DNA of 42,608 nucleotides from Escherichia phage phiKT, in sequence record JN882298. One strand, given 5' to 3'. The notes beneath the pieces are model-generated. The model made no database searches and was not told the DNA's origin. It saw only the letters and a program-made list of their open reading frames with translations. The position numbers and the translations under genes are program-made. Of this stretch, positions 9,733-42,608 are shown one piece after another. The number at the start of each line of letters is the position of its first letter. Position 1 is the first letter of the stretch.

Positions 9733-10215
9733 GTGATGATGAAATTAACCCAATCCCTAATCCCTGTAGTAAGACGCAAGATGGCAGCAGAGCAAGGGAA
9801 CCGATGTCTTTTGTGCGAAGAGATTATGGAAGATAAGCAAATGGTTCTGGACCACGACCATGATACAGGCCACTGTCGCGGGGTTCTCCACAGAGGCTGT
9901 AATGCCATGCTCGGACATCTGGAAAACAACCGTGCCCGTCACCTGCTGAAAGACGACGACAAGTTCGCTACGTTCCTCGGGAACATCATGGCGTATATCA
10001 CCATGGACTGCTCGCACCAGCCACTGCACAGCACTCATAAGAACGCTGCGGAGAAGAAAGCCGCAGCATATGAGAAGTCCCGGAAGAAACTGGTAGCCTC
10101 CCGGATTGCCTCCAACCCAACCGCCGCCGACGCTATCAAAGCGAAGGAAAAGGCACTGCGTAAAGTACGTGCTGACCGTAACCGTCCTACTGTTAAAGGA
10201 ACAAATGATGCCTAA
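9733..10215 (+). CDS. Endonuclease VII-like Holliday junction resolvase
   Basis: Motif C-L-L-C ... DHDHDTGHCRGVLHRGCNAMLG matches the zinc-binding/HNH-like core of T4 endonuclease VII. Confidence 0.75.
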   Translation: MMMKLTQSLIPVVRRKMAAEQGNRCLLCEEIMEDKQMVLDHDHDTGHCRGVLHRGCNAMLGHLENNRARHLLKDDDKFATFLGNIMAYITMDCSHQPLHSTHKNAAEKKAAAYEKSRKKLVASRIASNPTAADAIKAKEKALRKVRADRNRPTVKGTNDA

Positions 10216-11222: not shown

Positions 11223-11942
11223 ATGTTAGTAATGCTCTCTGGCGCGATTGGCGCTGGCAAAGATACCTTCGGTGAGTTCCTGTACGACTCATTTGACAAG
11301 TTCGGCTACAACGTGGAAGTGGTGAAGTTTGCCGACCCCATTCGTGAAGCTGCATTTAAGCTCGGATTCAATCCAGATGACCGGGCAACCAAGGAAGTAC
11401 CTGCAATACGCCATTATAAACTCTCAGAACTTGATGAGGCCATTTTTACTACTCATACCTGCCTGACACCTTACGAGCGCCGAATGGTCGCTGTACGAGT
11501 TCACCAGAGATTAATTAACATCCGTAAGGAAAAGCACGATGGCATTTATAAACCTGTCGTCAGTACGCGGGAGTTTATGCAGGTGGTTGGCGGCACTGTC
11601 CGAGATGCAGATGTGGATTACTATATCAAACACATGTTATCCAATGTACCCGTTGGGCGAATTAACATCTGCACTGACTCTCGGTTCCTTAACGAGCAAA
11701 AAATCGGGGATTATTCAATCTACGTTGAGCGTCCAAACAACCCGCTGGCGGTTAATACTCTCGACGCCTCGGAAGCAGCACAAGCATCGCTCCGAGGGGC
11801 GGCGAAGAAAGTAATCCTGAACAACAGCACTCTGGATAATCTGGCAGAAATGGCAGACTATGTGGCTACAACACTAATTTCAAAAGGGTATTGTGATGAT
11901 GCAGTTAAAGAGTCAAGCGGAACTGGAATCCTTATCGAGTGA
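11223..11942 (+). CDS. P-loop kinase (dNMP/nucleotide kinase-like)
   Basis: Walker A (GAIGAGKDT) at the N-terminus; 239 aa; 3' end overlaps the RNAP start. Confidence 0.55.
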   Translation: MLVMLSGAIGAGKDTFGEFLYDSFDKFGYNVEVVKFADPIREAAFKLGFNPDDRATKEVPAIRHYKLSELDEAIFTTHTCLTPYERRMVAVRVHQRLINIRKEKHDGIYKPVVSTREFMQVVGGTVRDADVDYYIKHMLSNVPVGRINICTDSRFLNEQKIGDYSIYVERPNNPLAVNTLDASEAAQASLRGAAKKVILNNSTLDNLAEMADYVATTLISKGYCDDAVKESSGTGILIE

Positions 11943-14367
11943 ACGCGGCCTTGCCAAGCTGATGGCCGAGTGTGAGCAGGCTGAATCAGCGGGGCGTGCA
12001 TCCGGCGCGTTTTATGCCAAGCAGTTGTTAGAGCGTTTTGTTAACCGTATGGCCGAACGTATTGACCACGAGATGGCGAATCCGGGTGCTGGCCGCGCGA
12101 AAGCGCATAAGAAACTGGTCGCTGTGTTTGACTCAAAAGTCACTGCGTTTATTTCTGTATCAACCACATTGAATATGCTGATGGTCAACGAGCAGACACC
12201 GGGCACCAGCCTTAGTCGCGCCCTCGGCAATGCAATGTACAACGAACTGTTCTGCACCACGTTCGACGATGCCAACCCGGACCTGTTCCACACCATCTGC
12301 AAGGACTTGGATAAGCGCCAGAGCAAATCCAGCCGCCACCGCATGACTGTGCTGAAGAATCAGGCAGCGAAGAAGGGTATCGCGTGGGAGAACTGGACCG
12401 TCACCGAAATCCTTCAGGTTGGTGAGTGGTGTCTGGATAATCTGGTGTCAGTTGGCCTGTGCGAAACGCATACCGAGGTGTCTCGCGGTAAGGCGAAGAT
12501 GTACGTGGAACTGTCCGACGAGGCGCTGGGAATGATTGAGGATACCAAACGTCTGGTGTCCTTCTTCCGGCCCCAGCGCCTCCCGTTCGTAGAGAAGCCT
12601 CTGGACTGGACCGGGATTGTTGGTGGTGGCTACCATACTGCTCGTATGCAGAGTACGATGCCTCGTTGCATCAAAGCCAGCCCGACCCAGATGGATGTAC
12701 TCATAAAGCATCGTGACGACTACAAGGGTACGGTGGTGGCGTGCATTAACACTCTGCAATCGGTAGAGTGGCGTATCAACAAGCGTATTCTGGAAGTGCA
12801 GCAGCAGATGTTCCGTGGCTTTGAGCCGAAGAACAAGCCGGATGCGCTGGAGTGTCATAGCAAGGACGTTGAGGATTGGACAGAGGCAGATAAATCTCTA
12901 CACAGCCACTGGAAGAAGGAAATGGCTCGCTGGTACACAGAGCAGCGTGCAGAGCGTTATGCCGCTTCACGACATGCCTACACGTTGTCAGTGGCACGAG
13001 AGTTCGCTGACTACCCGCGTATCTGGTTCATGTACTTCGCTGACTGGCGGGGCCGTTACTACCCGGCCACCACAGGCATCTCGCCGCAGGGGACCGACAT
13101 CTCTAAATCCATGCTGGAGTTCGCCAATGGCAAGCCCATCTCTGACCCAATCGCAGAACAGTTCTTCTTCCTCCTTGGTTCAACTAAATTCGGATTCGAC
13201 AAAGGCTCTATATCCGAACGAGTTCAGTGGGTTCACGAGAATCACGAACTTATCATGGCGTGTGCCGACGAACCGCTACTTCATACTGATTTCTGGTACA
13301 GAGAGGCAGATAAGAAGACCCGTTACCAATTTCTGGCATGGTGTTTTGAATATGCTGAATACAAACGGTTCCCGGCTGGATTTGTATCACGACTTCCGGT
13401 ATCTCTTGATGGCACATGTAACGGCCTACAACACTATTCGGCGATGTTACGAGATTCGGTTGGTGCTAAAGCTACCAACTTGTTACCTGCTAACCGACCA
13501 AACGATATTTACGCGCAAGTCGCAGGCGTTGTCACCAACCTTCTTGAAAGCATGTCACCTGCTGACTTCCCGGCACTGACACGCGAATCTAAGCCTCTCA
13601 GCATCTATGAGGTGGATTTTTTCAGGAGGGGGTGGTTACACCACGGCATTAGCCGTAGCCTCGTTAAACGGTGCGTTATGACGTTACCTTACGGGTCCAA
13701 GAAGTTCAGCATGGGTCGCTTCATTAAGGGCGATTACATGCTGGATATTCACCCGGAAGAGTTCGACACCGACGACTACACCGACGCGGCGAACTTCCTT
13801 GGCGATATAGTCTGGAAGGCTATCGGGATGGTGGTAGAGAAGGCGGTCGGCGGCATGAGCTACTTTCAAGGCACCAGCCGAGCAATTACCCGCAAGAAAG
13901 ACGTTGAGGTCATCCAGTGGCCGAGCATGACCGGACTTCCAATTGTTCAGGATTATTGGAAGACAGAGTACGTACAGTTCCGCTCAGTACGTGGTGGTGG
14001 TGCTCGACTGAAGTGTCTGGTCGAAACGGACAAGATTGACAAGCTGGGACATGCCAACGGAATCGCACCCAACATTGTTCACAGTCTGGATGCAGCGCAC
14101 TTAACGTTCGTTACGCTGGCCGCAGCAAAGGCTGGCATTGACTCCTTCGCAATGATTCACGACGACTACGGAACCCACGCAGCCGACACAGCACTCCTGT
14201 TCAAGCTCATCCGTGAAGAGTTCGTCAAGATGTACGAGCAAGACCCTTTCACAATGATTGCTGAAGCTCTTGAAGCACAAGCAATATCCAAGTATGTTCC
14301 TGCCAGACCAGAGTTCGGCGACCTCGACTTACAGCAGGTCAATCACTCCGAATACTTCTTCCTGTAG
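11896..14367 (+). CDS. Single-subunit DNA-directed RNA polymerase (T7-like)
   Basis: Motifs DGTCNGLQHYSAM and HDDYGTH match T7 RNAP active-site motifs A/C; ~820 aa; followed by a terminator and a phage-promoter-like motif. Confidence 0.9.
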   Translation: MMQLKSQAELESLSSERGLAKLMAECEQAESAGRASGAFYAKQLLERFVNRMAERIDHEMANPGAGRAKAHKKLVAVFDSKVTAFISVSTTLNMLMVNEQTPGTSLSRALGNAMYNELFCTTFDDANPDLFHTICKDLDKRQSKSSRHRMTVLKNQAAKKGIAWENWTVTEILQVGEWCLDNLVSVGLCETHTEVSRGKAKMYVELSDEALGMIEDTKRLVSFFRPQRLPFVEKPLDWTGIVGGGYHTARMQSTMPRCIKASPTQMDVLIKHRDDYKGTVVACINTLQSVEWRINKRILEVQQQMFRGFEPKNKPDALECHSKDVEDWTEADKSLHSHWKKEMARWYTEQRAERYAASRHAYTLSVAREFADYPRIWFMYFADWRGRYYPATTGISPQGTDISKSMLEFANGKPISDPIAEQFFFLLGSTKFGFDKGSISERVQWVHENHELIMACADEPLLHTDFWYREADKKTRYQFLAWCFEYAEYKRFPAGFVSRLPVSLDGTCNGLQHYSAMLRDSVGAKATNLLPANRPNDIYAQVAGVVTNLLESMSPADFPALTRESKPLSIYEVDFFRRGWLHHGISRSLVKRCVMTLPYGSKKFSMGRFIKGDYMLDIHPEEFDTDDYTDAANFLGDIVWKAIGMVVEKAVGGMSYFQGTSRAITRKKDVEVIQWPSMTGLPIVQDYWKTEYVQFRSVRGGGARLKCLVETDKIDKLGHANGIAPNIVHSLDAAHLTFVTLAAAKAGIDSFAMIHDDYGTHAADTALLFKLIREEFVKMYEQDPFTMIAEALEAQAISKYVPARPEFGDLDLQQVNHSEYFFL

Positions 14368-14420: not shown

Positions 14421-14453
14421 CACAATACCCTCAAACTGTTCGTTTTGAACACT

Positions 14454-14493
14454 AGCCTTGGCCTCTTTGGTCAGGGCTATTTTTTCTGTTTTT
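14454..14493 (+). terminator. Rho-independent terminator downstream of the RNAP gene
   Basis: ~10-bp stem (agccttggcc/ggtcagggct, one G-U and one mismatch) followed by a T-run (attttttctgttttt). Confidence 0.55.
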
Positions 14494-14533
14494 GGGTATT
14501 CGTTAAATATGGCTTGAAGCCTTGATATATGGG

Positions 14534-14560
14534 GTTTCCGCACATTATTTTAATAAGGGG
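14534..14560 (+). promoter_or_regulatory. Phage RNAP promoter-like motif, copy 1
   Basis: gtttccgcacattattttaataagggg; near-identical copy at 38018..38044; ends in a TATA-AGGG(AG) element like T7-type promoters. Confidence 0.5.
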
Positions 14561-14576
14561 TCTGGAGGGTGTTAAA

Positions 14577-19378: not shown

Positions 19379-19427
19379 CATACATCCCTCCCGTCCTGCC
19401 GTAATCTTTGCTTAGAAGGAAACATAA

Positions 19428-20411
19428 ATGGCCTTACCAACTTGGACTCCTACCCGTCCTAACCAACAGAACCAAGCAGGTGATGTGAATGCTCTCATCA
19501 TCGAAGAGTTCACGGGCATCGTTGAGCACACTATTAAGCGTAAGCAGGTGCTGGCCCCGTTTATCCCGATGCGTACCATTCGTGGTACTAACACCCTGAC
19601 CAACTATGCGGTCGGCAACACCACTCTCGGCACTGTAACCACTGGTACTGAACCAGCGGAAACTTCTGGCCCGGATGTCTCCCGCAACTTCTTGGTTGTG
19701 GATACTCACGTCTATGCACGTAACTCCATCGGTCTTCTGGAAACCTTCCAGAGCACCATCGACATCCGTCGTGAGATTGCAATTGAGCATGGCGAAACCA
19801 TGTCCAAGTTTACTGACCAAGCCTTCTTCATTCAGGCGGTCAAAGCGGCTCGTGCTGTTCAGAGTTCTTACTCTGGTGGTACTGCTAGTAAACCGGGTGG
19901 CTTCGGCGTGGGTAACGTCCAGACTCTGGCTGCGGCTGGTGACGAACTGGATGGCACCAAGCTGTACAAAGCAATCAGCAACCTGTTCGTGAAGATGGAA
20001 CAGCAGGACGTGCAGCCGAATATGGATGGCATGGTTCTGGCTCTGGTTCCGTCTGCGTTCTACGCGCTGCTGGATGCTGAGCAAATCATCAACGGTAACT
20101 ATGTTACTGCTGACGGCACCAGCGTATCTGGTATGGTCTTCAAAGCGTTCGGTGTGCCTGTTGTTAAATCCAACAACATCCCGACCACCAACATCACATC
20201 ACATCCTCTGGGTGCGAACTACACTGGCGACTTCACCAAAGTCGTAGGCGTGGTTCTGTCTCCGAAGGCTCTGATGGCTGGTGAGACTATCCCGCTCCAG
20301 AGCGACCTGTTCTACGACAAGCTGCGTAAGACTTGGTACGTGGACTCCGAGCGTGCATTCGGTGTAGCACCGAACCGCAACGAATACGCTGGCGTTATTC
20401 AGAAAGCGTAA
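19428..20411 (+). CDS. Major capsid protein
   Basis: 327 aa; high-expression codon usage; followed by a strong terminator, as for T7 gene 10. Confidence 0.85.
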   Translation: MALPTWTPTRPNQQNQAGDVNALIIEEFTGIVEHTIKRKQVLAPFIPMRTIRGTNTLTNYAVGNTTLGTVTTGTEPAETSGPDVSRNFLVVDTHVYARNSIGLLETFQSTIDIRREIAIEHGETMSKFTDQAFFIQAVKAARAVQSSYSGGTASKPGGFGVGNVQTLAAAGDELDGTKLYKAISNLFVKMEQQDVQPNMDGMVLALVPSAFYALLDAEQIINGNYVTADGTSVSGMVFKAFGVPVVKSNNIPTTNITSHPLGANYTGDFTKVVGVVLSPKALMAGETIPLQSDLFYDKLRKTWYVDSERAFGVAPNRNEYAGVIQKA

Positions 20412-21089: not shown

Positions 21090-23720
21090 ATGGCGCGTGT
21101 TGAAGGTTCTTACGAATCAGTAGTTCGGGGCGTCTCTCAGCAGGTGCCACACCAACGTTTCTCCGGTCAGCACACTGACCAAAAAAACTTACTTAGTGAC
21201 CCGGTAGAGGGTCTGGTACGGCGTAGAGGTACTCGTCGCATATCAGAGCATCTTGTTACCCCGTCACTGACTGCCTCCGCTATTGCAGAGATTCAAAAAT
21301 ATCGTACACACAAGTGGAACCCCGGTTCCGCTGGCGAACCACTACAGGTTGCATATAAGGCCAAGCCCGGTGTTATAGGGGATGGCCGTCTGCTGTACAT
21401 CATCAATCAGGTTACTCGGAACCGGGTTAACACTGCTGGTATAGATGCCGAGACTGATACGGTGTATCAGAAAGCACTCGCTAATGGTCTGTCCGCCATA
21501 ACCTCTGTGGGTCGTTACCTGTTCATGGCGGTAAACAATCATGTGGGCAGCGTGGCTGCGTCTCAGGATTACTTAGCAACAACCAACCGCAATAAGGTTG
21601 TAGCATGGGTCCGTGGTGGGGCATATGCCCGTACATATACTGTGACCTTATTGCTGGATGCTGGTGGTCAGTTGAAGTTCAGCTATACCACAATGTCCTC
21701 GTCGTACCCGACAGTGATTAACACCGCTGCGGCTGGTAATACCACCGACACGGATTATCAGAATAAGCTGTCCAAGATAGTCGCCGATTACAACTCGGCC
21801 ACTACCAAGTGGATTTCGGACGCAGCCAAGGACATCGACGCGGAGAATATTGCCAACCGCTTATTGAACGGTCCAGCCACATCCGGTAATACTGGTACTG
21901 GTACTGGTCTTATTGCAGCCAACGCTGCTGCCACGGGAATCAATAAAGTAACCAACCTGACGTATGCGCTGGTTAGCTCCACGCTGTATATTCAGGGCGA
22001 CAACATTCGTGAGATAGTTGTTGACGATGGTGGCGACACGACACTGATTCGTGGCGTTGGTAACGAGGTAACTAGCGCAGACTTGGTATCCACCCGACAC
22101 TTCTATGACAAGATTGTGAAGGTGCGTGCTAAGAAGTCCGACGACTCTGACGCATACTACCTGAAGGCAGAATCAAAGAACGACTCCAATGACCCCGGTG
22201 TAACTGACCGTGGGGAAGTGGTCTGGAAAGAGTGTGCTGGATATACTCAGACGTTGACCAACCATTTCCTGTTCGGCTACTACCACACTGATGGGGTCGT
22301 GTATGTTTCAAGCTCTCTTTCTAAGCTGTCTACTACGCTTTCAATCACTACCCCGGTTCTCCAACCGAACCTTGCTGGGGATGATTTCACCAACCCACCG
22401 CCTAACTTCGGCACCAAGCAAATCACCTATTTGGGTATGTTCCAAGACCGTCTTGTCGTGGGTAGCGGGGCAGTTGCTTCGTTCTCGCGGCCCGGAGATT
22501 ACCTTAATTTCTTTAGACAATCGGTGCTCACGCTTACTGACACTGACCCAATCGACATGTTCGCACTCGGAGCGGAGGATGATGTTCTCCGACACTCGGC
22601 GCTGTTCGATAAGTCGTTATTCATCTTTGGCGACAAGCGACAATACGTAGTCAACGGGCGTACCGTCCTGACTCCTACCAACCAGAACATGACCGTGGTA
22701 TCGCAATTCCCGAACACTACCGGGGCGCAGCCACAGGGTTCCGGCAACTTCATCTTCTATACGAAGCCCGGTGACACGAGTTCTCCAGTTATTACTCTCA
22801 ACCAGATGCAGTACGGGCAGATTGCAGACTCCACGGAGTCCTACGACCTGTCTCAACAATTGACTGACTTCTGTGCTGGGGTATGTGCTGAAATCGTTCC
22901 TGTGACCTCTCCAGCGGCTGTGCTAGTTCGTCCAGAGACATCGCAGAACTTGTACGTGTTCCGATACACCGATGAGGTGGGTACTGGTCGTCGTATGCAG
23001 GCTGCGTGGGACCGCTGGGAGTTCGACCCGGCATTCGGGACAATCATCTCTATGGCGACCTACGGCGATGAGATTCTGGCTATGGTTATGCGTAGGGCCG
23101 AGGATGGTTCGACGTACCTGTGCGTTGAGCAGTTATCGTTACGACCTGCAAAAAGCAACGAACCATATTTCGACTCATATCAGGTGGCCACTGGTGTAGG
23201 TTCCGGGATTACCGTATCCTCTCCGTACCTGTTAGCAAGTCCGAACTTACTTAATCGCTGTTATGTTGCGGTTGTTGGTGGTAGCCATGCTTTGACCGGG
23301 ACCACGTATGAGGATCGTGCAGAACTGACAGCCTCTCAAATTGCCGATGGGACTTTGGCGGCAGGTATCCCGTTCGAATCTTCCTGCATCCCAACCAACC
23401 CTTATCAACGTGACCAGAATGGGAACGCTATTCTACAGGGTAGGCTGGTGCTGTCTCAGGTTCAAATATCCATGCAGGATACTGGGGCTATGGACGTATA
23501 CGTGGCTGACGCTAACCGTGAGTGGTTATCGAAACACTTCAACGGGTTCCGCCTGTCCCGTACCGCATCTATGGTTGGTAGTCAACCTGTCGTGGACACC
23601 TCTATAACAGCATTGATTGGCCGAGAGGTCCGTGAATGCCGTTATCGCATTCAATCCGTTAAATTCCTGCCCATGGTGGTAACAGCCATCTCGTGGCAGG
23701 GTCAATCATTTAGGAGATAA
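21090..23720 (+). CDS. Tail tubular protein B
   Basis: 876 aa; position and size as T7 gp12. Confidence 0.75.
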   Translation: MARVEGSYESVVRGVSQQVPHQRFSGQHTDQKNLLSDPVEGLVRRRGTRRISEHLVTPSLTASAIAEIQKYRTHKWNPGSAGEPLQVAYKAKPGVIGDGRLLYIINQVTRNRVNTAGIDAETDTVYQKALANGLSAITSVGRYLFMAVNNHVGSVAASQDYLATTNRNKVVAWVRGGAYARTYTVTLLLDAGGQLKFSYTTMSSSYPTVINTAAAGNTTDTDYQNKLSKIVADYNSATTKWISDAAKDIDAENIANRLLNGPATSGNTGTGTGLIAANAAATGINKVTNLTYALVSSTLYIQGDNIREIVVDDGGDTTLIRGVGNEVTSADLVSTRHFYDKIVKVRAKKSDDSDAYYLKAESKNDSNDPGVTDRGEVVWKECAGYTQTLTNHFLFGYYHTDGVVYVSSSLSKLSTTLSITTPVLQPNLAGDDFTNPPPNFGTKQITYLGMFQDRLVVGSGAVASFSRPGDYLNFFRQSVLTLTDTDPIDMFALGAEDDVLRHSALFDKSLFIFGDKRQYVVNGRTVLTPTNQNMTVVSQFPNTTGAQPQGSGNFIFYTKPGDTSSPVITLNQMQYGQIADSTESYDLSQQLTDFCAGVCAEIVPVTSPAAVLVRPETSQNLYVFRYTDEVGTGRRMQAAWDRWEFDPAFGTIISMATYGDEILAMVMRRAEDGSTYLCVEQLSLRPAKSNEPYFDSYQVATGVGSGITVSSPYLLASPNLLNRCYVAVVGGSHALTGTTYEDRAELTASQIADGTLAAGIPFESSCIPTNPYQRDQNGNAILQGRLVLSQVQISMQDTGAMDVYVADANREWLSKHFNGFRLSRTASMVGSQPVVDTSITALIGREVRECRYRIQSVKFLPMVVTAISWQGQSFRR

Positions 23721-31132: not shown

Positions 31133-33916
31133 ATGGCTATTACGTTTTATGCTACCAACAACTTCACTGGTGATGGTACTACCGTAAACTGGAATATTAA
31201 CTTCGCAGACGGTTACATCGACACCACCGACGTGAAGGCGCGGTATCTGGATAATACCGGGAGCTACGTTGACATCGCTATTTCAAGCGTGGCAGGAAAC
31301 GTAGTAACCATTTCCCCGGCTGTGGCGGACGGTCAGGAGTTCCAAATCTATCGTGATACAGAGAAGCGGTTCCCGCTGGTGGACTTCTCTGACGGTGCAA
31401 TCCTCAACGAGACTAACCTTGACACGCTGGCTACCCAGGCTGTGATGGTATCCGCTGAGGCATTCGACCAATCTAACAACGGTGTACGTATTGCTGGTGA
31501 TTCCTTGACTATCGCGCAAGGTATCGACGCCAAGGCACAGCTGGCTCTGGACAACTCCGAGGCTGCTGTAGCTACAGCGAACGGTATCGACGGTAAAGCG
31601 CAGACGGCATTGAATACCGCCGCCGCCGCTGTCGCCACGGCTAATGCTGCCACATCTACTGCTGCTGGTGCTGTATCTACGGCCAACACCGCACTGTCTA
31701 CTGCCAACGATGCCGCCGATGACGCAGCTACCGCTGTCACTACCGCTAACGCCGCTGTGACTACGGCCAATGCTGCAACCACTACGGCCAACGCCGCTAG
31801 TGCTGCCGCCTCTGCTGCAACGACTACTGCGAACAATGCTGCAAACGACGCTGCTACTGCTGTGTCTACTGCGAATACGGCCTTGTCTACTGCGAACACC
31901 GCATCTACCAACGCCTCTACCGCTGTGTCCACGGCTAACGCCGCTAAGGCTACTGCTGAGGGTATCGAGGCTAAAGCGGATTCTGCTTTGGCAGCTTCTG
32001 CTAACGCTGTGACCACAGCTAACGCAGCTGAGGCTACGGCTAATGCTATCGACGGTAAGGCTACGGACGCACTAAACACTGCTGATGCCGCTGAGGCTAC
32101 GGCTAATACTGCCGCTGCTACTGCGAGTTCGGCTGCTGCTGACGCCAGTACCGCTTTGAGCACAGTTACTGCTGCTGACACAAAGGCACAGACTGCTCTG
32201 GATAATATCGCGTCTCTGGATGCGGCCACCATGAAGAAAGCAGCTAACCTGTCTGATATTGCGGATAAGGCGGCTGCATGGCTTAACGTCCGTCCAATTG
32301 GCTCCACGCCATTGGCAGGCGACCCGGTAGGTGACTACGATGCTGTTACTAAGCGTTGGGTAGAGAACCTGATTAACACAGGTACTGTTGGTCCGACCAT
32401 GAATGGTGTGATGAACTACGGCGTTGGTGATTTTCATCTTCGTGATAGTCGCGCATACATTCAGCCGTATGAGGTTGTATCCGACGGTCAATTACTGAAC
32501 CGCGCTGATTGGCCTGAACTTTGGTCTTATGCGCAAATGTTGTCGCCCATCACCGATGCAGACTGGCTTGCTGACCCGCAAAAGCGCGGCAAGTATTCAC
32601 TAGGTAACGGCGCAACAACATTCCGCGTACCGGACCGCAACGGGGTTCAGGCAGGTTCAATAGCTGCATTGTTTGGCCGTGGTGATGGCGGGGTGTCATC
32701 TAGTGATGGGACAATTCTTGACAGTGCTGCACCAAACATTACAGGCTCATTTGGCCGATTGGTTTACGCGTCAACAGGCACTATTTATGAAGGAAACACA
32801 GGGACAGGTGCCTTCTCTGCTTTCTCACCACAAGCAAAATATAAAAAGATGTCAGACCTATCTTCAATTGATGCTCAGGCAGCGGAATATCCTTCTGGGT
32901 ATGAATTCTTCGCATCAAATTCAAGCCCGGTCTATGGTAGAGGTTCAACAGAAGTCCGACCCAAAGCATTCACTGGTGTTTGGGTGATTCGCGCATCTGG
33001 TGGATTTGTTGCTGCGAATACCCTGTGGAGTGTTATTAATGGCGATGCTACTAAACCCGCTAACAACACAAGTGTTAACGGTGGAGAGATTCAGTCTGAA
33101 TACCGTATTGGTACTCAGGTTGAAGGTAAAACATCTCTGCGATTTGTCGGTACTATCGGTCAGGCTTATGCTGCGCGCCTGAACGTATCAAATAACTCAA
33201 ATACTAATGCCTTTATCTACGATTTCGATGAGTATGGTCGGGTTAACTTCGGCAAACCGGGTGGTGTGATCAAATCTGGTGATATTACTCTGGATATGGC
33301 ATCCAACGGCGATTTCTACGTTACCACAACCCGTTTACGTGTAGAACACCCTACCTCTGGTGGTCAGACTATGGGGATATCCACTCAAGGTGGGGCCAAC
33401 CGTGGTGCTGATCAGGGGTGGTTTGAGCACTGGGGTAACTCCTATGGCGGTGGTTCTGACAAATCTCGTGCAACTGTTGTTGAACTTAAGATTGGTACTG
33501 GTTATGCGTGGTACAGTCAGAAACTAGCGAGTGGCGTATATGAAACCAGATTTGCAAGTGCAATCTATGCAACTGCATTCACTCAAAACTCTGATGAACG
33601 TATCAAGGAAAACATCGAGCGTATTAGCGATCCGTTGGAAAAGATGAAGCAAATTAAAGGTGTTTCATGGAATTTTAAAACGGTTGGTAATGCAAAAGGT
33701 TACGGCTTTATCGCACAGGATGTGGAAAGGGTACTCCCTGAAGCTGTAAGTGTCGGAGGTGGTGAACTGGAACTGACTGACGGTACTAAGGTATCCGATG
33801 TTAAATCGGTAAACACCAGCGGTGTGGCTGCTGCACTCCACCACGAAGCTATCCTAGCTTTGATGGATAAGGTTGAGGCTCTGGAAGCACGCATTGCAGA
33901 ACTAACTTCTCAGTAA
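31133..33916 (+). CDS. Tail fiber protein (T7 gp17-like anchor, Ala/Thr heptad stalk, collar-type receptor-binding region, C-terminal intramolecular chaperone)
   Basis: Track ORF 31121..33916; ATG at 31133 with GGAG RBS; N-terminus (QIYRDTEKRFPLVDFSDGAILNE) resembles the T7 gp17 anchor; tail-collar-like motif (GNGATTFRVPDRNG); last 108 aa (SDERIKENIERISD...) resemble the S74 chaperone domain. Confidence 0.8.
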   Translation: MAITFYATNNFTGDGTTVNWNINFADGYIDTTDVKARYLDNTGSYVDIAISSVAGNVVTISPAVADGQEFQIYRDTEKRFPLVDFSDGAILNETNLDTLATQAVMVSAEAFDQSNNGVRIAGDSLTIAQGIDAKAQLALDNSEAAVATANGIDGKAQTALNTAAAAVATANAATSTAAGAVSTANTALSTANDAADDAATAVTTANAAVTTANAATTTANAASAAASAATTTANNAANDAATAVSTANTALSTANTASTNASTAVSTANAAKATAEGIEAKADSALAASANAVTTANAAEATANAIDGKATDALNTADAAEATANTAAATASSAAADASTALSTVTAADTKAQTALDNIASLDAATMKKAANLSDIADKAAAWLNVRPIGSTPLAGDPVGDYDAVTKRWVENLINTGTVGPTMNGVMNYGVGDFHLRDSRAYIQPYEVVSDGQLLNRADWPELWSYAQMLSPITDADWLADPQKRGKYSLGNGATTFRVPDRNGVQAGSIAALFGRGDGGVSSSDGTILDSAAPNITGSFGRLVYASTGTIYEGNTGTGAFSAFSPQAKYKKMSDLSSIDAQAAEYPSGYEFFASNSSPVYGRGSTEVRPKAFTGVWVIRASGGFVAANTLWSVINGDATKPANNTSVNGGEIQSEYRIGTQVEGKTSLRFVGTIGQAYAARLNVSNNSNTNAFIYDFDEYGRVNFGKPGGVIKSGDITLDMASNGDFYVTTTRLRVEHPTSGGQTMGISTQGGANRGADQGWFEHWGNSYGGGSDKSRATVVELKIGTGYAWYSQKLASGVYETRFASAIYATAFTQNSDERIKENIERISDPLEKMKQIKGVSWNFKTVGNAKGYGFIAQDVERVLPEAVSVGGGELELTDGTKVSDVKSVNTSGVAAALHHEAILALMDKVEALEARIAELTSQ
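31510..32280 (+). repeat. Heptad-coded Ala/Thr repeat tract inside the tail fiber gene
   Basis: Protein shows more than 13 consecutive heptads of the form [ST]TAN.A. plus longer repeated units (ATANGIDGKAQTALNTA-like), from imperfect 21-bp DNA repeats. Confidence 0.7.
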
Positions 33917-36093: not shown

Positions 36094-36329
36094 TGACTAT
36101 TGCTGCACAACTCCCAGACCCGAAGCTCGACGTTAAGGGCGACCGACTGCGTTTCCTGTTGGCCGCTTGTATCAGCGAGTGTAATATCCAAGCAGACAAC
36201 GGTGCGTATGATAAAGGCACCAGCTTCAAAGCCCTGCTTACTGCCGCTGCTGCACTCGTGAAGGTAGCTCCGGTAGAACCTGAAGACCCGGAAGACCCTG
36301 AAGACCCTGAAGACCCTGAAAACCCGTAA
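36093..36329 (+). CDS. Small hypothetical protein with C-terminal PEDPEDPEDPEDPENP repeat
   Basis: TAATG overlap with the terminase stop; C-terminus encoded by five tandem 9-bp units. Confidence 0.4.
   Translation: MTIAAQLPDPKLDVKGDRLRFLLAACISECNIQADNGAYDKGTSFKALLTAAAALVKVAPVEPEDPEDPEDPEDPENP
36283..36327. repeat. 5 x 9-bp tandem repeat (gaagaccc[g/t])
   Basis: Tandem units read directly in the sequence; encodes the (PED)n tail of the 36093..36329 ORF. Confidence 0.85.
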
Positions 36330-37795: not shown

Positions 37796-37810
37796 CACAG
37801 AGGGCAGTCC

Positions 37811-37854
37811 TAAAATTTGATATAATTTTGTGAGGGGGCAGTCCAACACAAATG
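37811..37854. repeat. Direct repeat (a)gggcagtcc flanking an AT-rich palindrome
   Basis: agggcagtcc at ~37811..37820 and gggcagtcc at ~37846..37854 flank taaaatttgatataatttt. Confidence 0.5.
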
Positions 37855-37886
37855 AGGTCGCGTTTCCCCCGTAGGCCCGGCCTTCT

Positions 37887-37958
37887 GGATGGCTGAATGG
37901 CTGGATGGATGGATGGCTGGACGGCTAGACGTTTAGACGGCTAAATGGCCAAATGACC
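37887..37958. repeat. Tandem array of nine imperfect 8-bp units (consensus ggatggct)
   Basis: ggatggct gaatggct ggatggat ggatggct ggacggct agacgttt agacggct aaatggcc aaatgacc read in strict 8-nt register. Confidence 0.8.
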
Positions 37959-38017
37959 GTAAAAAAGGGCCGTGTGCACTGATAGGGTCAATCGGGCTGT
38001 AGGTCGCGCCAACCGGA

Positions 38018-38044
38018 GTTTCCGCACATTACTTTATAAGGGAG
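38018..38044 (+). promoter_or_regulatory. Phage RNAP promoter-like motif, copy 2
   Basis: gtttccgcacattactttataagggag; matches 14534..14560 except for one substitution and one indel. Confidence 0.5.
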
Positions 38045-38134
38045 CTTGTAAGGTGTCTGGCGGCGATCCGTCTGACGACGGGAGAAGGGAAGAGACGTGG
38101 GGTATCTATCTTTTTGTGATTAGTGTTAGTTGTG

Positions 38135-38165
38135 TATCTATCTATCTATGTATGTATGTATATCC
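38135..38165. repeat. Tetranucleotide microsatellite (tatc)3(tatg)3
   Basis: tatctatctatctatgtatgtatgtata read directly. Confidence 0.8.
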
Positions 38166-38209
38166 GGCTATCCTTTATCTGCGCTGCGACGGGCCAGCTA
38201 TCGCTTTCC

Positions 38210-38239
38210 TTGTCTTCGCTACGATAAGGAAGCTATAAT
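38210..38239 (+). promoter_or_regulatory. Sigma70-type promoter candidate driving the 38279 mini-operon
   Basis: -35 TTGTCT, 18-nt spacer, -10 TATAAT (perfect); ~40 nt upstream of a strong-RBS ATG. Confidence 0.5.
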
Positions 38240-38278
38240 AGGGATTGTATTATTGCTCTTTAATAATGAGGTGAGATT

Positions 38279-38482
38279 ATGGCTATACGTAATTGGATGG
38301 CGGTTATGGCTATTGTGGATAGTGTGGGGATTGAAGCGGCGTTAGCCTTGCCATACGTTCCGCCGGATTCTAACACTATGCCGGGCCGTGCCGAACGTTA
38401 TGCAATTGAGTACAACATACAACGGGGGAAGTATGGCGAGACCATGCCGGAAGTATCGACGTCGTGCACTCATCGGGATTGA
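38279..38482 (+). CDS. Hypothetical small protein (first gene of the left-end mini-operon)
   Basis: GAGGTGA RBS before the ATG; 67 aa; atypical codon usage; overlaps the next ORF. Confidence 0.35.
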   Translation: MAIRNWMAVMAIVDSVGIEAALALPYVPPDSNTMPGRAERYAIEYNIQRGKYGETMPEVSTSCTHRD

Positions 38483-38873
38483 TGTATCGGGGTATCATCC
38501 GCCGGCTGTAGTCCGGGACTGGTTAAGGGATACTTTAAGGGATGACTCCAAGGGACTAGCCGATCAGCTTATTTGTAAACCGTGGGCTGTATGGTTAGTG
38601 TGGGCGCATGATGAAATCACTAGTAAGCGGGTTCGTCTTCTCTGCTGTGTAGGGGAGCGACAAGCGCTATACATAATGGATTATGCGGCCCGGCTTGATG
38701 GGTATCTGTGCCGACTGTATCAATCCGACGGTGACGTGATTGATATTAGTCATCTGTCCGAGTGTCAATCGGTGCATAACTGGACCGGATACTGGCGACA
38801 CGTCAACGGCGAAAGTAAGCCGATGACGATTAGTGACGATGGATTGAGAAAGCTGCGGGAGCTGATAGCATGA
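38433..38873 (+). CDS. Hypothetical protein (second gene of the left-end mini-operon)
   Basis: Track ORF 38388..38873; ATG at 38433 after a GGGGG stretch; stop is followed directly by a terminator hairpin; atypical codon usage (cgg, agt, tta, ata). Confidence 0.4.
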   Translation: MARPCRKYRRRALIGIDVSGYHPPAVVRDWLRDTLRDDSKGLADQLICKPWAVWLVWAHDEITSKRVRLLCCVGERQALYIMDYAARLDGYLCRLYQSDGDVIDISHLSECQSVHNWTGYWRHVNGESKPMTISDDGLRKLRELIA

Positions 38874-38877
38874 CGAT

Positions 38878-38914
38878 AAGGGGCCGGGAGTGTATCCTTG
38901 CCCCTTTCTTTTTT
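38878..38914 (+). terminator. Rho-independent terminator after the 38433..38873 ORF
   Basis: Stem aaggggc(cggga)/(tcctt)gcccctt followed by tcttttttg. Confidence 0.6.
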
Positions 38915-39079
38915 GTCCTGGACAAACCGCTACATTCTGGATGTATGTTGTACGCATAATCTCTTGCGTTCTCCTGATCGGGCTTATGCACTCATGGGTA
39001 TACGTTGGCTTGTCTTACGTGTGATTAGGTGTCTGGTGAGAACGTGGGAGATTATTTTCGATTATTTTTAAATATTCGC

Positions 39080-39108
39080 TTGCACTATCCGAAAACGTCG
39101 CGTATAAC
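39080..39108 (+). promoter_or_regulatory. Sigma70-type early promoter candidate
   Basis: -35 TTGCAC, 17-nt spacer, -10 TATAAC; AT-rich UP-like element upstream (ttttcgattatttttaaatatt). Confidence 0.5.
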
Positions 39109-39368
39109 TATCTACATCAGGACGGGCAAGGCAATACGGACTGAAGGAGGAGGCGCAACGGAAGGCGCGACACGGCGGGAGTGATACAAGGACGCGCCAA
39201 GGGGGAACGGATAGGAACTGCGAAGCCTGCCGGATACCCGCTAAGGAAAGCAACGTTTGCCGGAGTATGCAGACACGGCAAACAAATAAAAGTAGTTCGG
39301 GAGGCAAGGATAGCCCACGTAGTGGCTGCCGATAGCGTATGAAGTATCGGATAACCGAACGAAAGCGA

Positions 39369-39397
39369 TTGACACGTTAAGCAATATGCCGTAATTT
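39369..39397 (+). promoter_or_regulatory. Second sigma70-type early promoter candidate (weaker -10)
   Basis: -35 TTGACA (perfect), 17-nt spacer, -10 TAATTT. Confidence 0.3.
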
Positions 39398-39755
39398 AGA
39401 TAACAAGCAGTACAGCAACATTACAGCAAACTAGAATAGTTTGAGTCGCATTGAGTGCGGATAGCTGACCTGACAGCGATATGATTCAGGGGGGCCGGAG
39501 GTTAGATAGGACGTCGCCAATAAGCCTGATAAACAAAACACTGTTTATCTAATGCTACTCATTGAGCGGCATTATATAAGCAACAAGCGCGGGGGAGTCC
39601 TACCAGCACAACGCGCTTTATAAATCAAGGCCACACGACGTCGTAAAATGACGGGAAAGGTCAGGAGTGTAGGCGCGGCGGTCGCCCGTGTAGTATCAAA
39701 GATACAGCGACCAACTAAACCAAATCACTTAAACGCAACGTAAACGAGGCGCACA

Positions 39756-40250
39756 ATGAAAGTATTAATTTCTGCATTCCGTAAAGAAAACGACCTGCTG
39801 ACTCATATCAACAATCACGCAGAACTGTACGACCGCATTGCAGCGTTGGGCCTGACACCACAGCCCGTCGATGGCGTGTGGAAAGGTGTCAGCGAATTTT
39901 CTTACATGGTACACGGTGTAACCGCAGCGATGGTAAAAGCGTTTTATGCAATGGCCCGCGACTACAATCAGGAGGCTATCTTGCTTGTTGCTGATGATAA
40001 CCGTGCCGCAGTAGTACCGACCGATGGCCCGGCAATGGCCCCGATGATTGACGTCGGCGACTGGAGGGAAGTCAGTAAAGAGATCGCCATACAGTTCGAC
40101 GGGTACACCAAGACACGCGACGGCCGCTATTTTGTCGCAGCCACTCGTGAGCAGTTTGGCCTCGCCACTCGTCGGCTGTTAGCCACACAGCCGGGCGTGA
40201 TCGCAGCTAACGAGTATGCCGCACGTGTAAACGCAGTGGGAGGATTATAA
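39756..40250 (+). CDS. First early protein of the main early operon, function unknown
   Basis: GAGG RBS; 164 aa; first ORF after ~650 nt of leader. Confidence 0.6.
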   Translation: MKVLISAFRKENDLLTHINNHAELYDRIAALGLTPQPVDGVWKGVSEFSYMVHGVTAAMVKAFYAMARDYNQEAILLVADDNRAAVVPTDGPAMAPMIDVGDWREVSKEIAIQFDGYTKTRDGRYFVAATREQFGLATRRLLATQPGVIAANEYAARVNAVGGL

Positions 40251-40251
40251 A

Positions 40252-40500
40252 ATGCGCAAACTTAGTGAAATTGTACATCATACCCACGTATTCTATAACA
40301 GCAAGGGTTATCTGTGGATAACCCTGAAGGAAGTGCGACCTGACGGGCGTCGTCGTGTGGTAGTACGTAAAATGAACAGCAAATACTTCAGTAATTGGTC
40401 ATTGGATACAGTACGCATTAATAACGAGACTTTTCAGATTGACTCACAGATTGACCTACAACCAACGGCAAGCCATTCCGCACCATATTTCTCCAACTGA
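40252..40500 (+). CDS. Early hypothetical protein (basic)
   Basis: GGGAGGA RBS; ATG one nt after the upstream stop; 82 aa. Confidence 0.5.
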   Translation: MRKLSEIVHHTHVFYNSKGYLWITLKEVRPDGRRRVVVRKMNSKYFSNWSLDTVRINNETFQIDSQIDLQPTASHSAPYFSN

Positions 40501-40515
40501 ATCCGGGCCTATGCC
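40497..40515. repeat. 19-nt motif ctgaatccgggcctatgcc, copy 1 (followed by a hairpin)
   Basis: Identical 19-mer recurs at 40881..40899; both copies lie at or just after a stop codon. Confidence 0.7.
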
Positions 40516-40622
40516 GCGCACTCATGGGCGGCAAATGCCTTGTCTTATAGTGTACCAGTGGATACCTACACAGTGGCGTAGGTATCAGCAGATACATTAA
40601 TCAAAAACACAGAGGTAACACC

Positions 40623-40865
40623 ATGCAAACTATTATCACCAAATACCACGGCGCTACCAGCACACGCGGGGGCCGTATCGTTGCCAAATACTGGAACGGT
40701 AAAAAAACGGTATCATACGACCACAGCCTGAATGCAGACGCTAACCATAAGGCCGCAGCCGATGCACTCATCGCCGACCTGAAGGCGCGTACAGGCAGCG
40801 ACTGGTCCATCATTGCAGCTGGTTGCCTACCAGACCACACGGGGTACGCGTTTATCATCGAGTAA
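40623..40865 (+). CDS. Early hypothetical protein
   Basis: GAGGT RBS; 80 aa. Confidence 0.5.
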   Translation: MQTIITKYHGATSTRGGRIVAKYWNGKKTVSYDHSLNADANHKAAADALIADLKARTGSDWSIIAAGCLPDHTGYAFIIE

Positions 40866-40880
40866 GATTTACACAGTCAC

Positions 40881-40899
40881 CTGAATCCGGGCCTATGCC
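40881..40899. repeat. 19-nt motif ctgaatccgggcctatgcc, copy 2
   Basis: Exact match to 40497..40515. Confidence 0.7.
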
Positions 40900-40936
40900 A
40901 CGTTGATTCGTGGGAAACACAGCAGACAGGTACATT

Positions 40937-41170
40937 ATGATGGCATATAAAACTCAGGTCCGCGCCTGCACGAATTTAACCACAGGCCGCGAAAGTTTTT
41001 ATCAACGGCATGTTAACGGCTTTGGTAATCCCTATTGGGAGAAAATAGGCCGGGCATGGTATTTGGAGTTAATGGCGAAAGCTGACCGCAGGAATACCAT
41101 CGTTGAGCGCCACGACGCTAACAGCCGTAGCGTGGACCGCGAACTATTTTTTAAGGTGTCACCAGTATGA
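40937..41170 (+). CDS. Early hypothetical protein
   Basis: Track ORF 40910..41170; internal ATG at 40937 with AGGT 5 nt upstream. Confidence 0.45.
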   Translation: MMAYKTQVRACTNLTTGRESFYQRHVNGFGNPYWEKIGRAWYLELMAKADRRNTIVERHDANSRSVDRELFFKVSPV

Positions 41171-41280
41171 ATACAATCACGTCCGGCCTTGCACTCATCG
41201 GCGCGATTATCGGCGTCGCTGTGTTCAACGCCTTGCCAATGATTATTGGCGTGGCGGTCCTCAGTTGGTGGCTGTCATAA
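41167..41280 (+). CDS. 37-aa hydrophobic micropeptide (single predicted transmembrane helix)
   Basis: ATGA overlap with the upstream stop; MNTITSGLALIGAIIGVAVFNALPMIIGVAVLSWWLS. Confidence 0.35.
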   Translation: MNTITSGLALIGAIIGVAVFNALPMIIGVAVLSWWLS

Positions 41281-41345
41281 TCCGCGCACTCATAGCCACA
41301 CTGTGCGTTTCCCAATCGCATAAATCATTTTTGAGATACACACAT

Positions 41346-41525
41346 ATGAATATCAAAGAATCCGTAGCCACAGAACGCGCCGCCGCCATACAGTACGCGC
41401 ACGATAACCTATCACCGGATGCCTACTGGCTGTTCTGCGACCGCCTTCGAGAAACAGAAGACCTATCACCGGATAATATCCGCGCCATTATTGTCGCAGT
41501 AGCGCAGGAGGTGTCTAATGTTTGA
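41346..41525 (+). CDS. Early hypothetical small protein
   Basis: In-frame ATG within track ORF 41103..41525, after the micropeptide; weak RBS. Confidence 0.3.
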   Translation: MNIKESVATERAAAIQYAHDNLSPDAYWLFCDRLRETEDLSPDNIRAIIVAVAQEVSNV

Positions 41526-41763
41526 AGCAGCGAACGATGATCATTACAACGAGAAAACAGCGGTGGCAGAGGCACAGAAGCGCCAGCGGGATATAAATAT
41601 GGCCTACTATACACGCGTGCCGCCGTTTTACGTGTTCCAGTGTGGTACGGACGGAAACCAGTTTGGTTACGTCACCAAGTACGGCTATTGTGACGTTGGT
41701 TTTAATAGCTTCGCAGATGCCACAGAGGCGGCGGAGGAGTACACACAGAGGGTAGAGCTATGA
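41518..41763 (+). CDS. Early hypothetical protein
   Basis: Strong RBS (AGGAGG); 81 aa. Confidence 0.5.
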   Translation: MFEAANDDHYNEKTAVAEAQKRQRDINMAYYTRVPPFYVFQCGTDGNQFGYVTKYGYCDVGFNSFADATEAAEEYTQRVEL

Positions 41764-41948
41764 CACAACCAGTATACAACGTGTATCGGGGTACGGGCGT
41801 ATGCGTCCGGATGACATACCGGGCTGTTCCGGGGGCCACAGTGTCCCAATACCTCACTGACTCCGGTTGGCAGGATAGTTTAGTGACTGAACGCACTATT
41901 CGCGCCAGCCTCCCACTCGTGGCTAAAAACGTGAGGTTCAAGGCATGA
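41760..41948 (+). CDS. Early hypothetical protein
   Basis: ATGA overlap with the upstream gene; GAGGG RBS; 62 aa. Confidence 0.4.
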   Translation: MTQPVYNVYRGTGVCVRMTYRAVPGATVSQYLTDSGWQDSLVTERTIRASLPLVAKNVRFKA

Positions 41949-42280
41949 AAATCATTAATCCGTTACATCTCATCCAGTTCGTGGTGGTTTACTTGTACAC
42001 GTGGTACGCACTACGCAGTGCGCCGCGTGTAGAAGGCTTTAATGTCGGCTGGAGTAGTCCGCACGATGACTTTCAGGTGTACTATAACGCGCAGGTCAAC
42101 GTGTTAGGCGTAATCACACCAGCGCAGGACACTACATGGCAACCAGTCGGCTGGCGTGCGTGGTTCAACCTTGTCCGGGCATATGATGACCTGCTCGAAC
42201 AGACCACAGCGGCGTTCATTGAAGCGTATCTCCCAGACTTCGCAGATGACATCAACGAATCAGACACAGAAGGCAAATAA
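41945..42280 (+). CDS. Early hypothetical protein (hydrophobic N-terminus, acidic C-terminus)
   Basis: ATGA overlap with the upstream gene; 111 aa. Confidence 0.5.
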   Translation: MKIINPLHLIQFVVVYLYTWYALRSAPRVEGFNVGWSSPHDDFQVYYNAQVNVLGVITPAQDTTWQPVGWRAWFNLVRAYDDLLEQTTAAFIEAYLPDFADDINESDTEGK

Positions 42281-42282
42281 TT

Positions 42283-42608
42283 ATGACAAGCATCAATCCG
42301 GTAGACCTGACCACTTTAGGCGCACGAGTAACCGACCCGGCACAGTTGACCGAAGGCCGCTGGTATGCGGTACGCGTTAACTGTAGAGGCTATATCCCAC
42401 TGGTACACGCCAAATACTTGGGTAGGAAAGGTCGGTATTCACATGCGTTTGAGGTGTGCGATGAGGATCATCTCGCGTTAAAGCGTTCTCTGGGCCTCGC
42501 CAAGCGCATCCACCGCGACAACGGTAGTATCCACTCGGGGAAGATTGATGGCGGCGGTATCTGCGAGATATTCAAGTTTAAGCAGGTGGTGGATGGTCCC
42601 GTAAGCAC
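42283..42608 (+). CDS. Early hypothetical protein, 3'-truncated at the window edge
   Basis: ATG at 42283, open to the last base; frame is continuous with 2..427 if the sequence is circular. Confidence 0.45.
   Translation, partial: MTSINPVDLTTLGARVTDPAQLTEGRWYAVRVNCRGYIPLVHAKYLGRKGRYSHAFEVCDEDHLALKRSLGLAKRIHRDNGSIHSGKIDGGGICEIFKFKQVVDGPVS

Follow-up and report, generated by a model that had tools for sequence, protein, structure and literature searches.

The repeated 19-mer of the phiKT early region as the arm of a candidate intercistronic RNA element, with a separate word that may mark nicks

What is the role of a sequence that recurs at the ends of early phage genes? In the early region of Escherichia phage phiKT (sequence record JN882298; the whole stretch of 42,608 nucleotides is referred to here as the window), the 19-mer CTGAATCCGGGCCTATGCC occurs exactly twice, at 40497–40515 and 40881–40899, both on the + strand, where 0.01 occurrences would be expected by chance. 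No third site is present in the window even when three mismatches are allowed. The original prediction took the 19-mers, each followed by a short hairpin, for processing or attenuation signals between early genes, in the manner of the RNase III sites of T7. Our leading explanation, to which we give slightly less than even confidence, is that the 19-mers and hairpins are truncated and remodelled copies of an intercistronic element that processes or stabilizes RNA and also serves as a crossover point, and that the word GCACTCAT, carried in one of the hairpin loops, is separate and probably nick-associated.

The closest relative of phiKT is central to this analysis. The early region and the first 20 kb are 93–95% identical to those of Escherichia phage PGT2 (Ermolevavirus, Autographiviridae), and no other genome reaches such a level. 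The order of the window is permuted: position 1 of PGT2, its left physical end, aligns with window position 37842, and the phiKT early region extends from 37842 to 42608 and then on from position 1. An IMG/VR search with the 19-mer gave PGT2 only, and no further Ermolevavirus genomes were found. A metagenome scan for the 19-mer yielded two unrelated chance matches only, one of them within an apparent transporter gene, and an Rfam scan of 37800–42608 showed no curated RNA family at E ≤ 5.

The 19-mer and the two-helix element family

As predicted, both 19-mers lie at or just after the stop codons of early genes. Copy 1 contains the TGA (40498–40500) of the open reading frame (ORF) 40252–40500, and copy 2 begins 15 nt past the TAA (40863–40865) of ORF 40623–40865. 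The short hairpins are also real, with TGCCGC-N10-GCGGCA at 40512–40533 and CCACG-N6-CGTGG at 40898–40913. However, hairpins of 5–6 bp are not significant alone, because 1065 hairpins with stems of ≥5 bp occur in the window, one every ~40 nt. When repeated hairpin loops were sought across the genome in a generic way, the output was too noisy for use. Additionally, the repeat extends beyond 19 nt, to 25 nt with two mismatches. PGT2 has copy 1 with its hairpin but lacks copy 2. In PGT2, the CTGA of copy 1 pairs with a downstream TCAG to form a lower stem; thus, the 19-mer is the 5′ arm of a larger element, and in the predicted fold this arm would run from the lower-stem strand through the internal loop into the first part of the upper stem.

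Related elements were found by searching the early regions of related phages for internal repeats and folding 64-nt windows. The same architecture is present in PGT2, in Yersinia phage phiR8-01 (2484–2547 and 3370–3433), in Kosakonia phage Kc318 (2215–2283 and 3250–3313) and in four IMG/VR Cronosvirus-like contigs, each time between a stop codon and the next ribosome-binding site. KP34 and Minorna carry copies with the motif AGCCTATAGCGTCCTACGGGGCGCTATGTGAA, likewise found as internal repeats. Every copy is in sense orientation and falls between the stop codon of one gene and the start codon of the next. In the common fold, a lower stem of 4–9 bp that includes the upstream stop codon is followed by an internal loop of ~4 × 4 nt (5′ GGCC or AGCC), an upper stem of ~10 bp and finally a tetraloop or small loop. 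The fold z-scores are −3.2 for the PGT2 counterpart of the element at copy 1 (element B), −3.9 for phiR8-01 and −4.1 for KP34.

Covariance models were then built from these copies. Model R2, with a seed of six Melnykvirinae copies and PGT2 B, recovers 13 members at E < 1e-3, including window positions 40490–40553. Model R3, with a seed of Melnykvirinae copies only and no Ermolevavirus sequence, independently detects PGT2 B (23.5 bits, E 6e-4). In the R2 alignment of the 13 members, which was fitted to the model so that the counts lean towards structure, paired cells amount to 89%, compared with 30–46% when the partners are slid; both sides have changed in 10 of 17 pairs, with both helices involved, and the covariation score of 0.508, against 0.170 in shuffles, was reached by 0 of 500.

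The Drulisvirus motif of KP34, AGCCTATAGCGTCCTACGGGGCGCTATGTGAA (Eriksson 2015; Lu 2019), resembles the other members in several respects. It occurs twice per genome, in both cases immediately behind the stop codon of an early gene, its 5′ part contains GCCTAT as in GGGCCTATGCC, and it adopts the two-helix geometry with covarying lower stems (AATTAC/GTAATT, GTAGCA/TGCAAC and GGTA/TACC). In contrast, its apex is a UACG/UAUG tetraloop and not the GCACTC word. Neither R2 nor R3 matches the KP34 motif, and its link to the family is drawn from the geometry, the context and the shared GCCTAT.

Within the window, the copies are found in different states, all on the + strand. Element B (40490–40553) is a two-helix intercistronic element with 19-mer copy 1 as its 5′ arm and with its original 3′ lower arm replaced. 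It scores 25.8 bits (E 1.5e-4 to 4e-6) with R2, whose seed held the PGT2 copy, and is matched by R2 only, not by R3. Its apex hairpin, TGCCGC / GCACTCATGG / GCGGCA at 40512–40533, identified by sequence and fold, carries one GCACTCAT word in the loop. A second complete two-helix element is located at 40541–40606, just upstream of ORF 40623–40865, with an apex that lacks the GCACTCAT word. This element, not B, is the best R3 match in the window (19.1 bits, E 0.011), and none of 200 shuffles folded as well (−20.5 kcal/mol, z −3.29). The gap 40497–40610, which holds the two adjacent elements, has a z-score of −4.1.

The remaining copies are more altered. Element C (40879–40931) has 19-mer copy 2 as its 5′ arm, a lower stem ACCTG/CAGGT and an apex CCACG-TTGATT-CGTGG. 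Its 3′ arm is homologous to that of PGT2 element B, and the two align pairwise over the full length, with a 3′ flank of AACACAGCAGACAGG in phiKT versus ACACACGCAGTCAG in PGT2. By this alignment, element C is a remodelled duplicate; R2 and R3 do not match it. Element A (38974–39030) is a diverged copy, CTGATCGGGCTTAT + GCACTCATGG + GCTTGTCTTA, that aligns with B and is eroded in phiKT; the PGT2 copy folds at −18.8 kcal/mol, and the phiKT copy has a z-score of +0.24. Element D, AATCCGCGCACTCATAG at 41279–41295, was recognized by sequence comparison and resembles a 5′ arm of B that has lost the 11 nt GGCCTATGCCG from between two CCG triplets. Elements A and D were not found by the covariance models.

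Likeness to T7 RNase III sites and exchange of early gene cassettes

To compare the family with T7, we placed the T7 sites by coordinates, since the T7 RefSeq record contains no RNase III site features. We take the early sites to lie at 890, 1468, 3138, 5887 and 6448, following Dunn and Studier, and the folds at these coordinates agree with RNase III sites there. The five sites R0.3, R0.5, R1, R1.1 and R1.3 fold into a lower stem of ~8 bp and an upper stem of 10 bp, which are separated by a 4 × 5 internal loop and capped by a small loop. Similarly, the phage elements lie in the early operon between a stop codon and the next ribosome-binding site and consist of two helices with an internal loop, with 4–9 bp in the lower stem (8 in T7), 4 × 4 nt in the loop (4 × 5 in T7) and ~10 bp in the upper stem. 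The base of the upper stem is AAG/CUU in both. Moreover, the 3′ loop reads CUUUAUCA in the Cronosvirus copies and CUUUAUGA in T7, and CCUUUAU^GAU of T7 corresponds to GCUUUAUCA in Cronosvirus. In contrast, the apex is variable in T7 and invariant in the phiKT-type family, and the window copies are partly degenerate. The irregular helix of about two turns is present in PGT2 B, in the element at 40541–40606 and in the Melnykvirinae and Drulisvirus copies, whereas the phiKT element B has only a 4-bp lower stem and C has large internal loops.

Collectively, these folds and models indicate a family that is probably T7-site-like in shape and placement but is not recognized as such by R1, a covariance model with the five T7 RNase III sites as its seed. 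The proposal of a T7-like processing signal is supported in part. It holds up if each hairpin is taken as a piece of a larger intercistronic element with two covarying helices; as originally described, hairpins of 5–6 bp are too short alone for RNase III. A limited literature search turned up no reports of RNase III sites in phiKMV-like phages. Elsewhere, R1 finds more T7-like sites between early genes of phiKMV-like phages, namely, KP34 2260–2323 (E 0.003–0.02), Slant 2267–2328 (E 0.007) and 7257–7321 of sequence L023. The KP34 site lies in the gap between the two AGCCTAT motifs.

Based on these likenesses, we infer RNase III cleavage of the elements. The early operon, presumably transcribed by the host RNA polymerase, carries the 19-mer element, and in the polycistronic early mRNA, the irregular helices of ~16–20 bp would be substrates for an RNase specific for double strands, for which the RNase III of the host, by analogy with T7, is the likeliest candidate. 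Alternatively, the helices might block 3′ exonucleases. In either case, the transcript would be split, and the upstream messages would each keep a protective 3′ hairpin.

The same elements coincide with a boundary between the two Ermolevavirus genomes. Copy 1 and its hairpin are identical between PGT2 and phiKT at 41 of 42 aligned nt, and the homology ends at 40533/40534, immediately after hairpin 1. At this point begins a segment of 630 nt (40534–41163, delimited by BLAST and alignment) with two ORFs, the element at 40541–40606 and element C, where PGT2 has 41 nt instead, and the 19-mers bracket a gene cassette inside it. Furthermore, the 3′ flank that copy 1 has acquired in phiKT (GCCTTGTCTTA) is similar to the one in element A (38974–39030). 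The arm exchange in B, the homology between C and PGT2 B, and the likenesses of A and D indicate that the repeats are homologous gene-boundary sequences that recombined mutually. Element B would be a family member whose 3′ arm was swapped by recombination, and the element at 40541–40606 would have come in as part of the cassette that was inserted. The conservation of the arms might let them double as crossover points that shuffle early genes.

A similar arrangement is found in the promoter-early stem-loops (PeSLs) of T4-type phages, which Arbiol et al. reportedly described in 2010. There, small early ORFs are bordered by repeated regulatory stem-loops, at which crossover shuffles the cassettes; the phiKT counterpart would be the 19-mers that bracket ORF 40623–40865, with the PGT2 breakpoint at the hairpin. 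In contrast to PeSLs, the phiKT repeat has no promoter, and the phage family and sequences differ.

The neighboring genes are also of interest. The first early genes, at 39756–40500, encode an S-adenosylmethionine lyase (SAM-lyase; Pfam PF23780, E 2e-24) and a protein homologous to K1F gp0.2. ORF 40623–40865, which is bracketed by the 19-mers, has homologues in 9g-like and other unrelated phages. By their homologies, these genes would fit mobile, likely anti-defence genes.

A strand-exclusive word and its possible link to phage nicks

The original prediction also joined a related element, GCACTCAT(g/a)g, to the 19-mer signal. This element is indeed present, although its coordinates were slightly off and are correctly 38988, 40518, 41191 (where it reads GCACTCATCG) and 41286. 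Its assignment to the 19-mer signal did not hold, as it is a separate, strand-exclusive and over-represented word that also occurs inside genes and resembles nick-associated words. Specifically, GCACTCAT has 10 copies on the + strand and none on the − strand, all within 15 kb of the left end and ahead of the RNA polymerase gene. The expectation is 0.78 copies in a third-order Markov model and 0.76 ± 0.86, with a maximum of 4, in 300 synonymous-codon shuffles, which corresponds to ~13-fold over-representation. Because both the codon shuffles and the Markov model give far fewer copies, the enrichment is real. The synonymous-codon shuffles also ruled out that the coding copies are an artefact of Ala-Leu-Ile codons.

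Three of the 10 copies lie within elements, at 38988 in element A, at 40518 in the apex loop of element B and at 41286 in element D. A further copy is found by sequence search at 38466–38473, another inside ORF 40623–40865 (40764–40771) and another inside a 37-codon membrane ORF at 41167–41280 (41191–41198). The remaining copies are located at 2201–2208 in the primase gene, at 3147–3154 in the helicase gene, at 4342–4349 in a reading frame unlike that of the other coding copies, and at 10031–10038, the last before the RNA polymerase gene (11893–14367). All phiKT genes are on the + strand, and the RNA polymerase gene lies behind the DNA metabolism genes, a layout as in phiKMV-like phages.

A comparable word is present in related phages. 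In Kc318, the Melnykvirinae word CTGCACTYGCAG has six copies on the + strand and none on the − strand, in several reading frames, where 0.14 would be expected. For the Klebsiella phage fHe-Kpn01, a PhageTerm peak at nt 7873 has been reported, and S1 nuclease digestion supports a nick there (PMC7291057). The sequence at this nick is CTGCA|CCTGCAGATGCAA, and the Melnykvirinae word CTGCACTYGCAG matches the nicked site CTGCACCTGCAG at 10–11 of 12 positions. KP34 has the same sequence as the fHe-Kpn01 nick site at 7412 and a variant at 22838. Additionally, all 14 copies of the nick word of phage tf, TACT/RTGMC, are confined to the top strand (PMC3517423), and 61 Pseudomonas phages are enriched for a related word whose copies are clustered and lie mostly on the coding strand (PMC11780129). 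Like the phiKT word, the published nick words (TACT/RTGMC in tf, CGACN5CCTA/CTCCGG in phiKMV, the fHe-Kpn01 site at 7873 and those of T5) are over-represented many-fold on one strand and clustered in one part of the genome, with coding and non-coding copies. In contrast to the physically supported fHe-Kpn01 nick, nicking at the phiKT/PGT2 word is a prediction from sequence.

Since the related word CTGCACTYGCAG nearly equals the mapped fHe-Kpn01 nick site, GCACTCAT(N)G may, by analogy, be the recognition word of a nickase for site-specific nicking like that of phiKMV, tf and T5; we put this at roughly an even chance. The word is separate from the hairpins, because the Drulisvirus elements and the element at 40541–40606 fold without it and most copies of the word lack a fold. 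A combined system is also conceivable but improbable, in which phiKT and PGT2 would have a previously undescribed nicking system for the word GCA|CTCATNG, which is confined to the + strand of the first 15 kb, and would display this word at the tips of early-operon hairpins, thereby linking a DNA nick to an RNA processing or stability element.

Weighing the readings and the setting of the early region

Several observations weigh against the proposed RNA function and nick word. The fold of element B (−20.6 kcal/mol, z −1.68) has a lower stem of only 4 bp. The centroid fold of element C has two stems with large internal loops, but the sequence at copy 2 folds no better than shuffled sequence (z −0.40), and neither the phiKT copy of element A nor element D (z −1.1 to −1.3) shows the family structure in folds. 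R1 gave no match at the elements of the window at E ≤ 10, with filters on or off, and among the relatives, it aligns the KP34 motifs and one phiR8-01 copy over the full length but at non-significant scores of 9–12 bits. In addition, KP34, Slant and Cronosvirus contigs have separate T7-like sites, and the element family might therefore belong to another class that serves another purpose. The apex word is unchanged in all 13 family members while the stems vary, which suggests sequence-specific recognition, because RNase III needs no conserved apex. Finally, the phiKT word (T)GCACTCATNG and the Melnykvirinae word have only the 5′ seven bases, TGCACTC, and the final G in common, and the nick of fHe-Kpn01, a phage of another genus, was mapped by a single PhageTerm peak and S1 digestion.

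The invariant apex word of the Melnykvirinae and Ermolevavirus elements is the main argument for explanations at the level of DNA or of a binding protein. The hairpins might act as DNA, with extrudable inverted repeats that show GCACTCAT in a single-stranded loop to a nickase as 'major' nick sites, and with the RNA fold incidental. The apex word is invariant in 13 of 13 members over covarying stems, a related word coincides with the mapped fHe-Kpn01 nick (PMC7291057), and the Melnykvirinae and Drulisvirus words are themselves small palindromes. However, seven of the 10 word copies are in genes, without extended stems, and the Drulisvirus elements and the element at 40541–40606 share the two-helix geometry with an apex that has no nick-like word. 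Moreover, the elements are without exception on the sense strand and fall precisely between the stop codon and the next ribosome-binding site, a position that suggests a role in RNA, and we regard a DNA function as rather unlikely. The conserved apex and covarying stems could also be bound by a dedicated RNA-binding factor of the phage or host, in nut- or put-like antitermination or as a translational operator, and thereby aid the host RNA polymerase towards the phage RNA polymerase gene, whose distance from the left genome end is ~17 kb, with all early and middle genes ahead of it. This is quite improbable, given that a canonical rrn-type boxA is already present in the early leader (38255–38266), that the same word is frequent within genes and that no candidate binding protein was identified. 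It is also unlikely that the repeats are mainly recombination scars or linkers for early-gene cassettes and that the phiKT copies have little present function. The 19-mers do flank a cassette in the 630-nt segment absent from PGT2, with the junction right after hairpin 1; the 3′ arm of B is of the A type, D resembles a product of deletion, A is eroded, and the flanked ORFs have homologues in unrelated phage groups (K1F gp0.2 and 9g-like). Nevertheless, compensatory changes occur family-wide in both helices, which argues for selection on the fold, C retains two stems through paired changes, and the elements are identical between phiKT and PGT2 (41 of 42 nt in B) compared with ~93% in the flanks.

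In the literature, such motifs have been read as phage RNA polymerase promoters. Repeat searches led to this proposal for the KP34 motif (Eriksson 2015, PMC4411677) and to the listing of TGCACTCGCAG sites as predicted phage promoters of Ahp1 (PMC5014404). Every copy is on the + strand, as a promoter would allow, and GCACTC also occurs within the Kc318 late promoter GGCACTCCTATAGCAAC. However, purified KP34 RNA polymerase made no transcript from a DNA fragment that bears the KP34 motif (PMC6834552), conservation is restricted to 8–10 nt around the word with flanks that covary as stems, and better candidates exist (GTTTCCGCACATTAYTTTA in phiKT and GGCACYCCTATAGCAAC in Kc318). The ~17–23 nt of conservation upstream of phage-transcribed genes that would mark a promoter was not found; the 19-mer has two copies, both in the early region. 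Promoter function of the elements is thus very improbable. An intrinsic terminator or attenuator of early transcription is hardly credible, even though the hairpins follow stop codons and a consensus scan weakly flags 40526–40540. Neither hairpin is followed by a U-tract or T-run, which also makes the attenuation in the original prediction unlikely; four terminator-like sites were found against 4.1 expected from shuffles, and genuine T-run terminators are located elsewhere, at 38880–38915 and 14453–14490. Two further resemblances were dismissed: a sigma-70 promoter reading of the motifs has unfit spacing and hexamers, with no more scan sites than in shuffles, and the likenesses to sigma-54 and EcoKI sites were checked by eye and dropped.

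Other regulatory sequences were observed around these genes. The sequence GTTTCCGCACATTAYTTTA..AAGGG has two copies, at 14531–14572 and 38015–38056, which are 76% identical over 42 nt. The former follows the RNA polymerase gene and a terminator-like T-run hairpin (14453–14490) and precedes the first late gene, and the latter is ~175 nt from the left genome end. Because these positions equal those of the KP34 and LUZ19 phage promoters, this sequence is likely the phiKT RNA polymerase promoter. In Kc318, GGCACYCCTATAGCAAC is found downstream of the RNA polymerase gene and ahead of the capsid gene. The same holds for GGCAC[T/C]CCTATAGCAACTAAACG, at 19400–19440 and 22860–22890 of Kc318, which differs from the TGCACTCGCAG sites published for Ahp1 and is a T7-like promoter candidate for Melnykvirinae.

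The early leader contains a sigma-70-like promoter, TTGTCT-18-TATAAT, with 10 of 12 matches, followed by GCTCTTTAATAA (38210–38266 in total). The latter is one mismatch from what we take to be the core of the E. coli rrn boxA. The exact 12-mer GCTCTTTAACAA is found at the equivalent early-leader position in T7 (nt 813), phiR8-01, Kc318 and four IMG/VR relatives, and the boxA-like counterpart in PGT2 reads GCTCTTTAAGAA. As far as its sequence goes, this boxA suggests Nus-factor antitermination of early transcription. A boxA-like reading of the 3′ flank (CUUUAACA) was dropped because its bases are paired in the upper stem and the real boxA is elsewhere. Downstream of ORF 38388–38873, between the left-end promoter and boxA and the main early promoters, an intrinsic-terminator-like hairpin (AAGGGGC...GCCCCTT) at 38880–38915 is followed by TTTCTTTTTT; the consensus scan missed this hairpin because of its long loop.

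Further repeats and conserved stretches were noted. At 39146–39409, the early leader contains a non-coding, purine-rich stretch of 264 nt that has 88% identity to a region without annotation in Minorna (Escherichia phage, Drulisvirus), a genome that otherwise shares almost no DNA identity with phiKT. This stretch, for which Rfam gave no match, may represent either a leader RNA with structure or a group of promoters. Close to the left genome end, just inside it at 37886–37933, there are tandem 8-nt repeats (TGGATGGC and variants), and PGT2 has them too. In-frame coding repeats are present at 31598–32131 and 36263–36325, namely, repeats of 21/42 nt, rich in Ala and Thr, in a gene of the tail-fibre region, and 9-nt repeats (GAAGACCCT).

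The motifs of this element family have been annotated or published as phage promoters in KP34-like phages and Ahp1; one of them was refuted experimentally, and no alternative was offered. A T7-style RNA element together with a separate, nick-matching word provides two concrete, testable functions that would replace the promoter reading. If the RNA reading is right, phiKMV-like phages of enterobacteria would process or stabilize their early mRNA much like T7, by means of a distinct class of sites. The elements would also illustrate how conserved gene-boundary structures act as crossover points for the exchange of early, likely anti-defence genes. The function of site-specific phage nicks is described as unknown (PMC11780129). 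If the GCACTCAT word marks nicks, an E. coli phage would be usable for studying them, and if the same hairpins serve both nicking and RNA processing, these long-unexplained phage nicks would be linked to early gene expression or genome entry.

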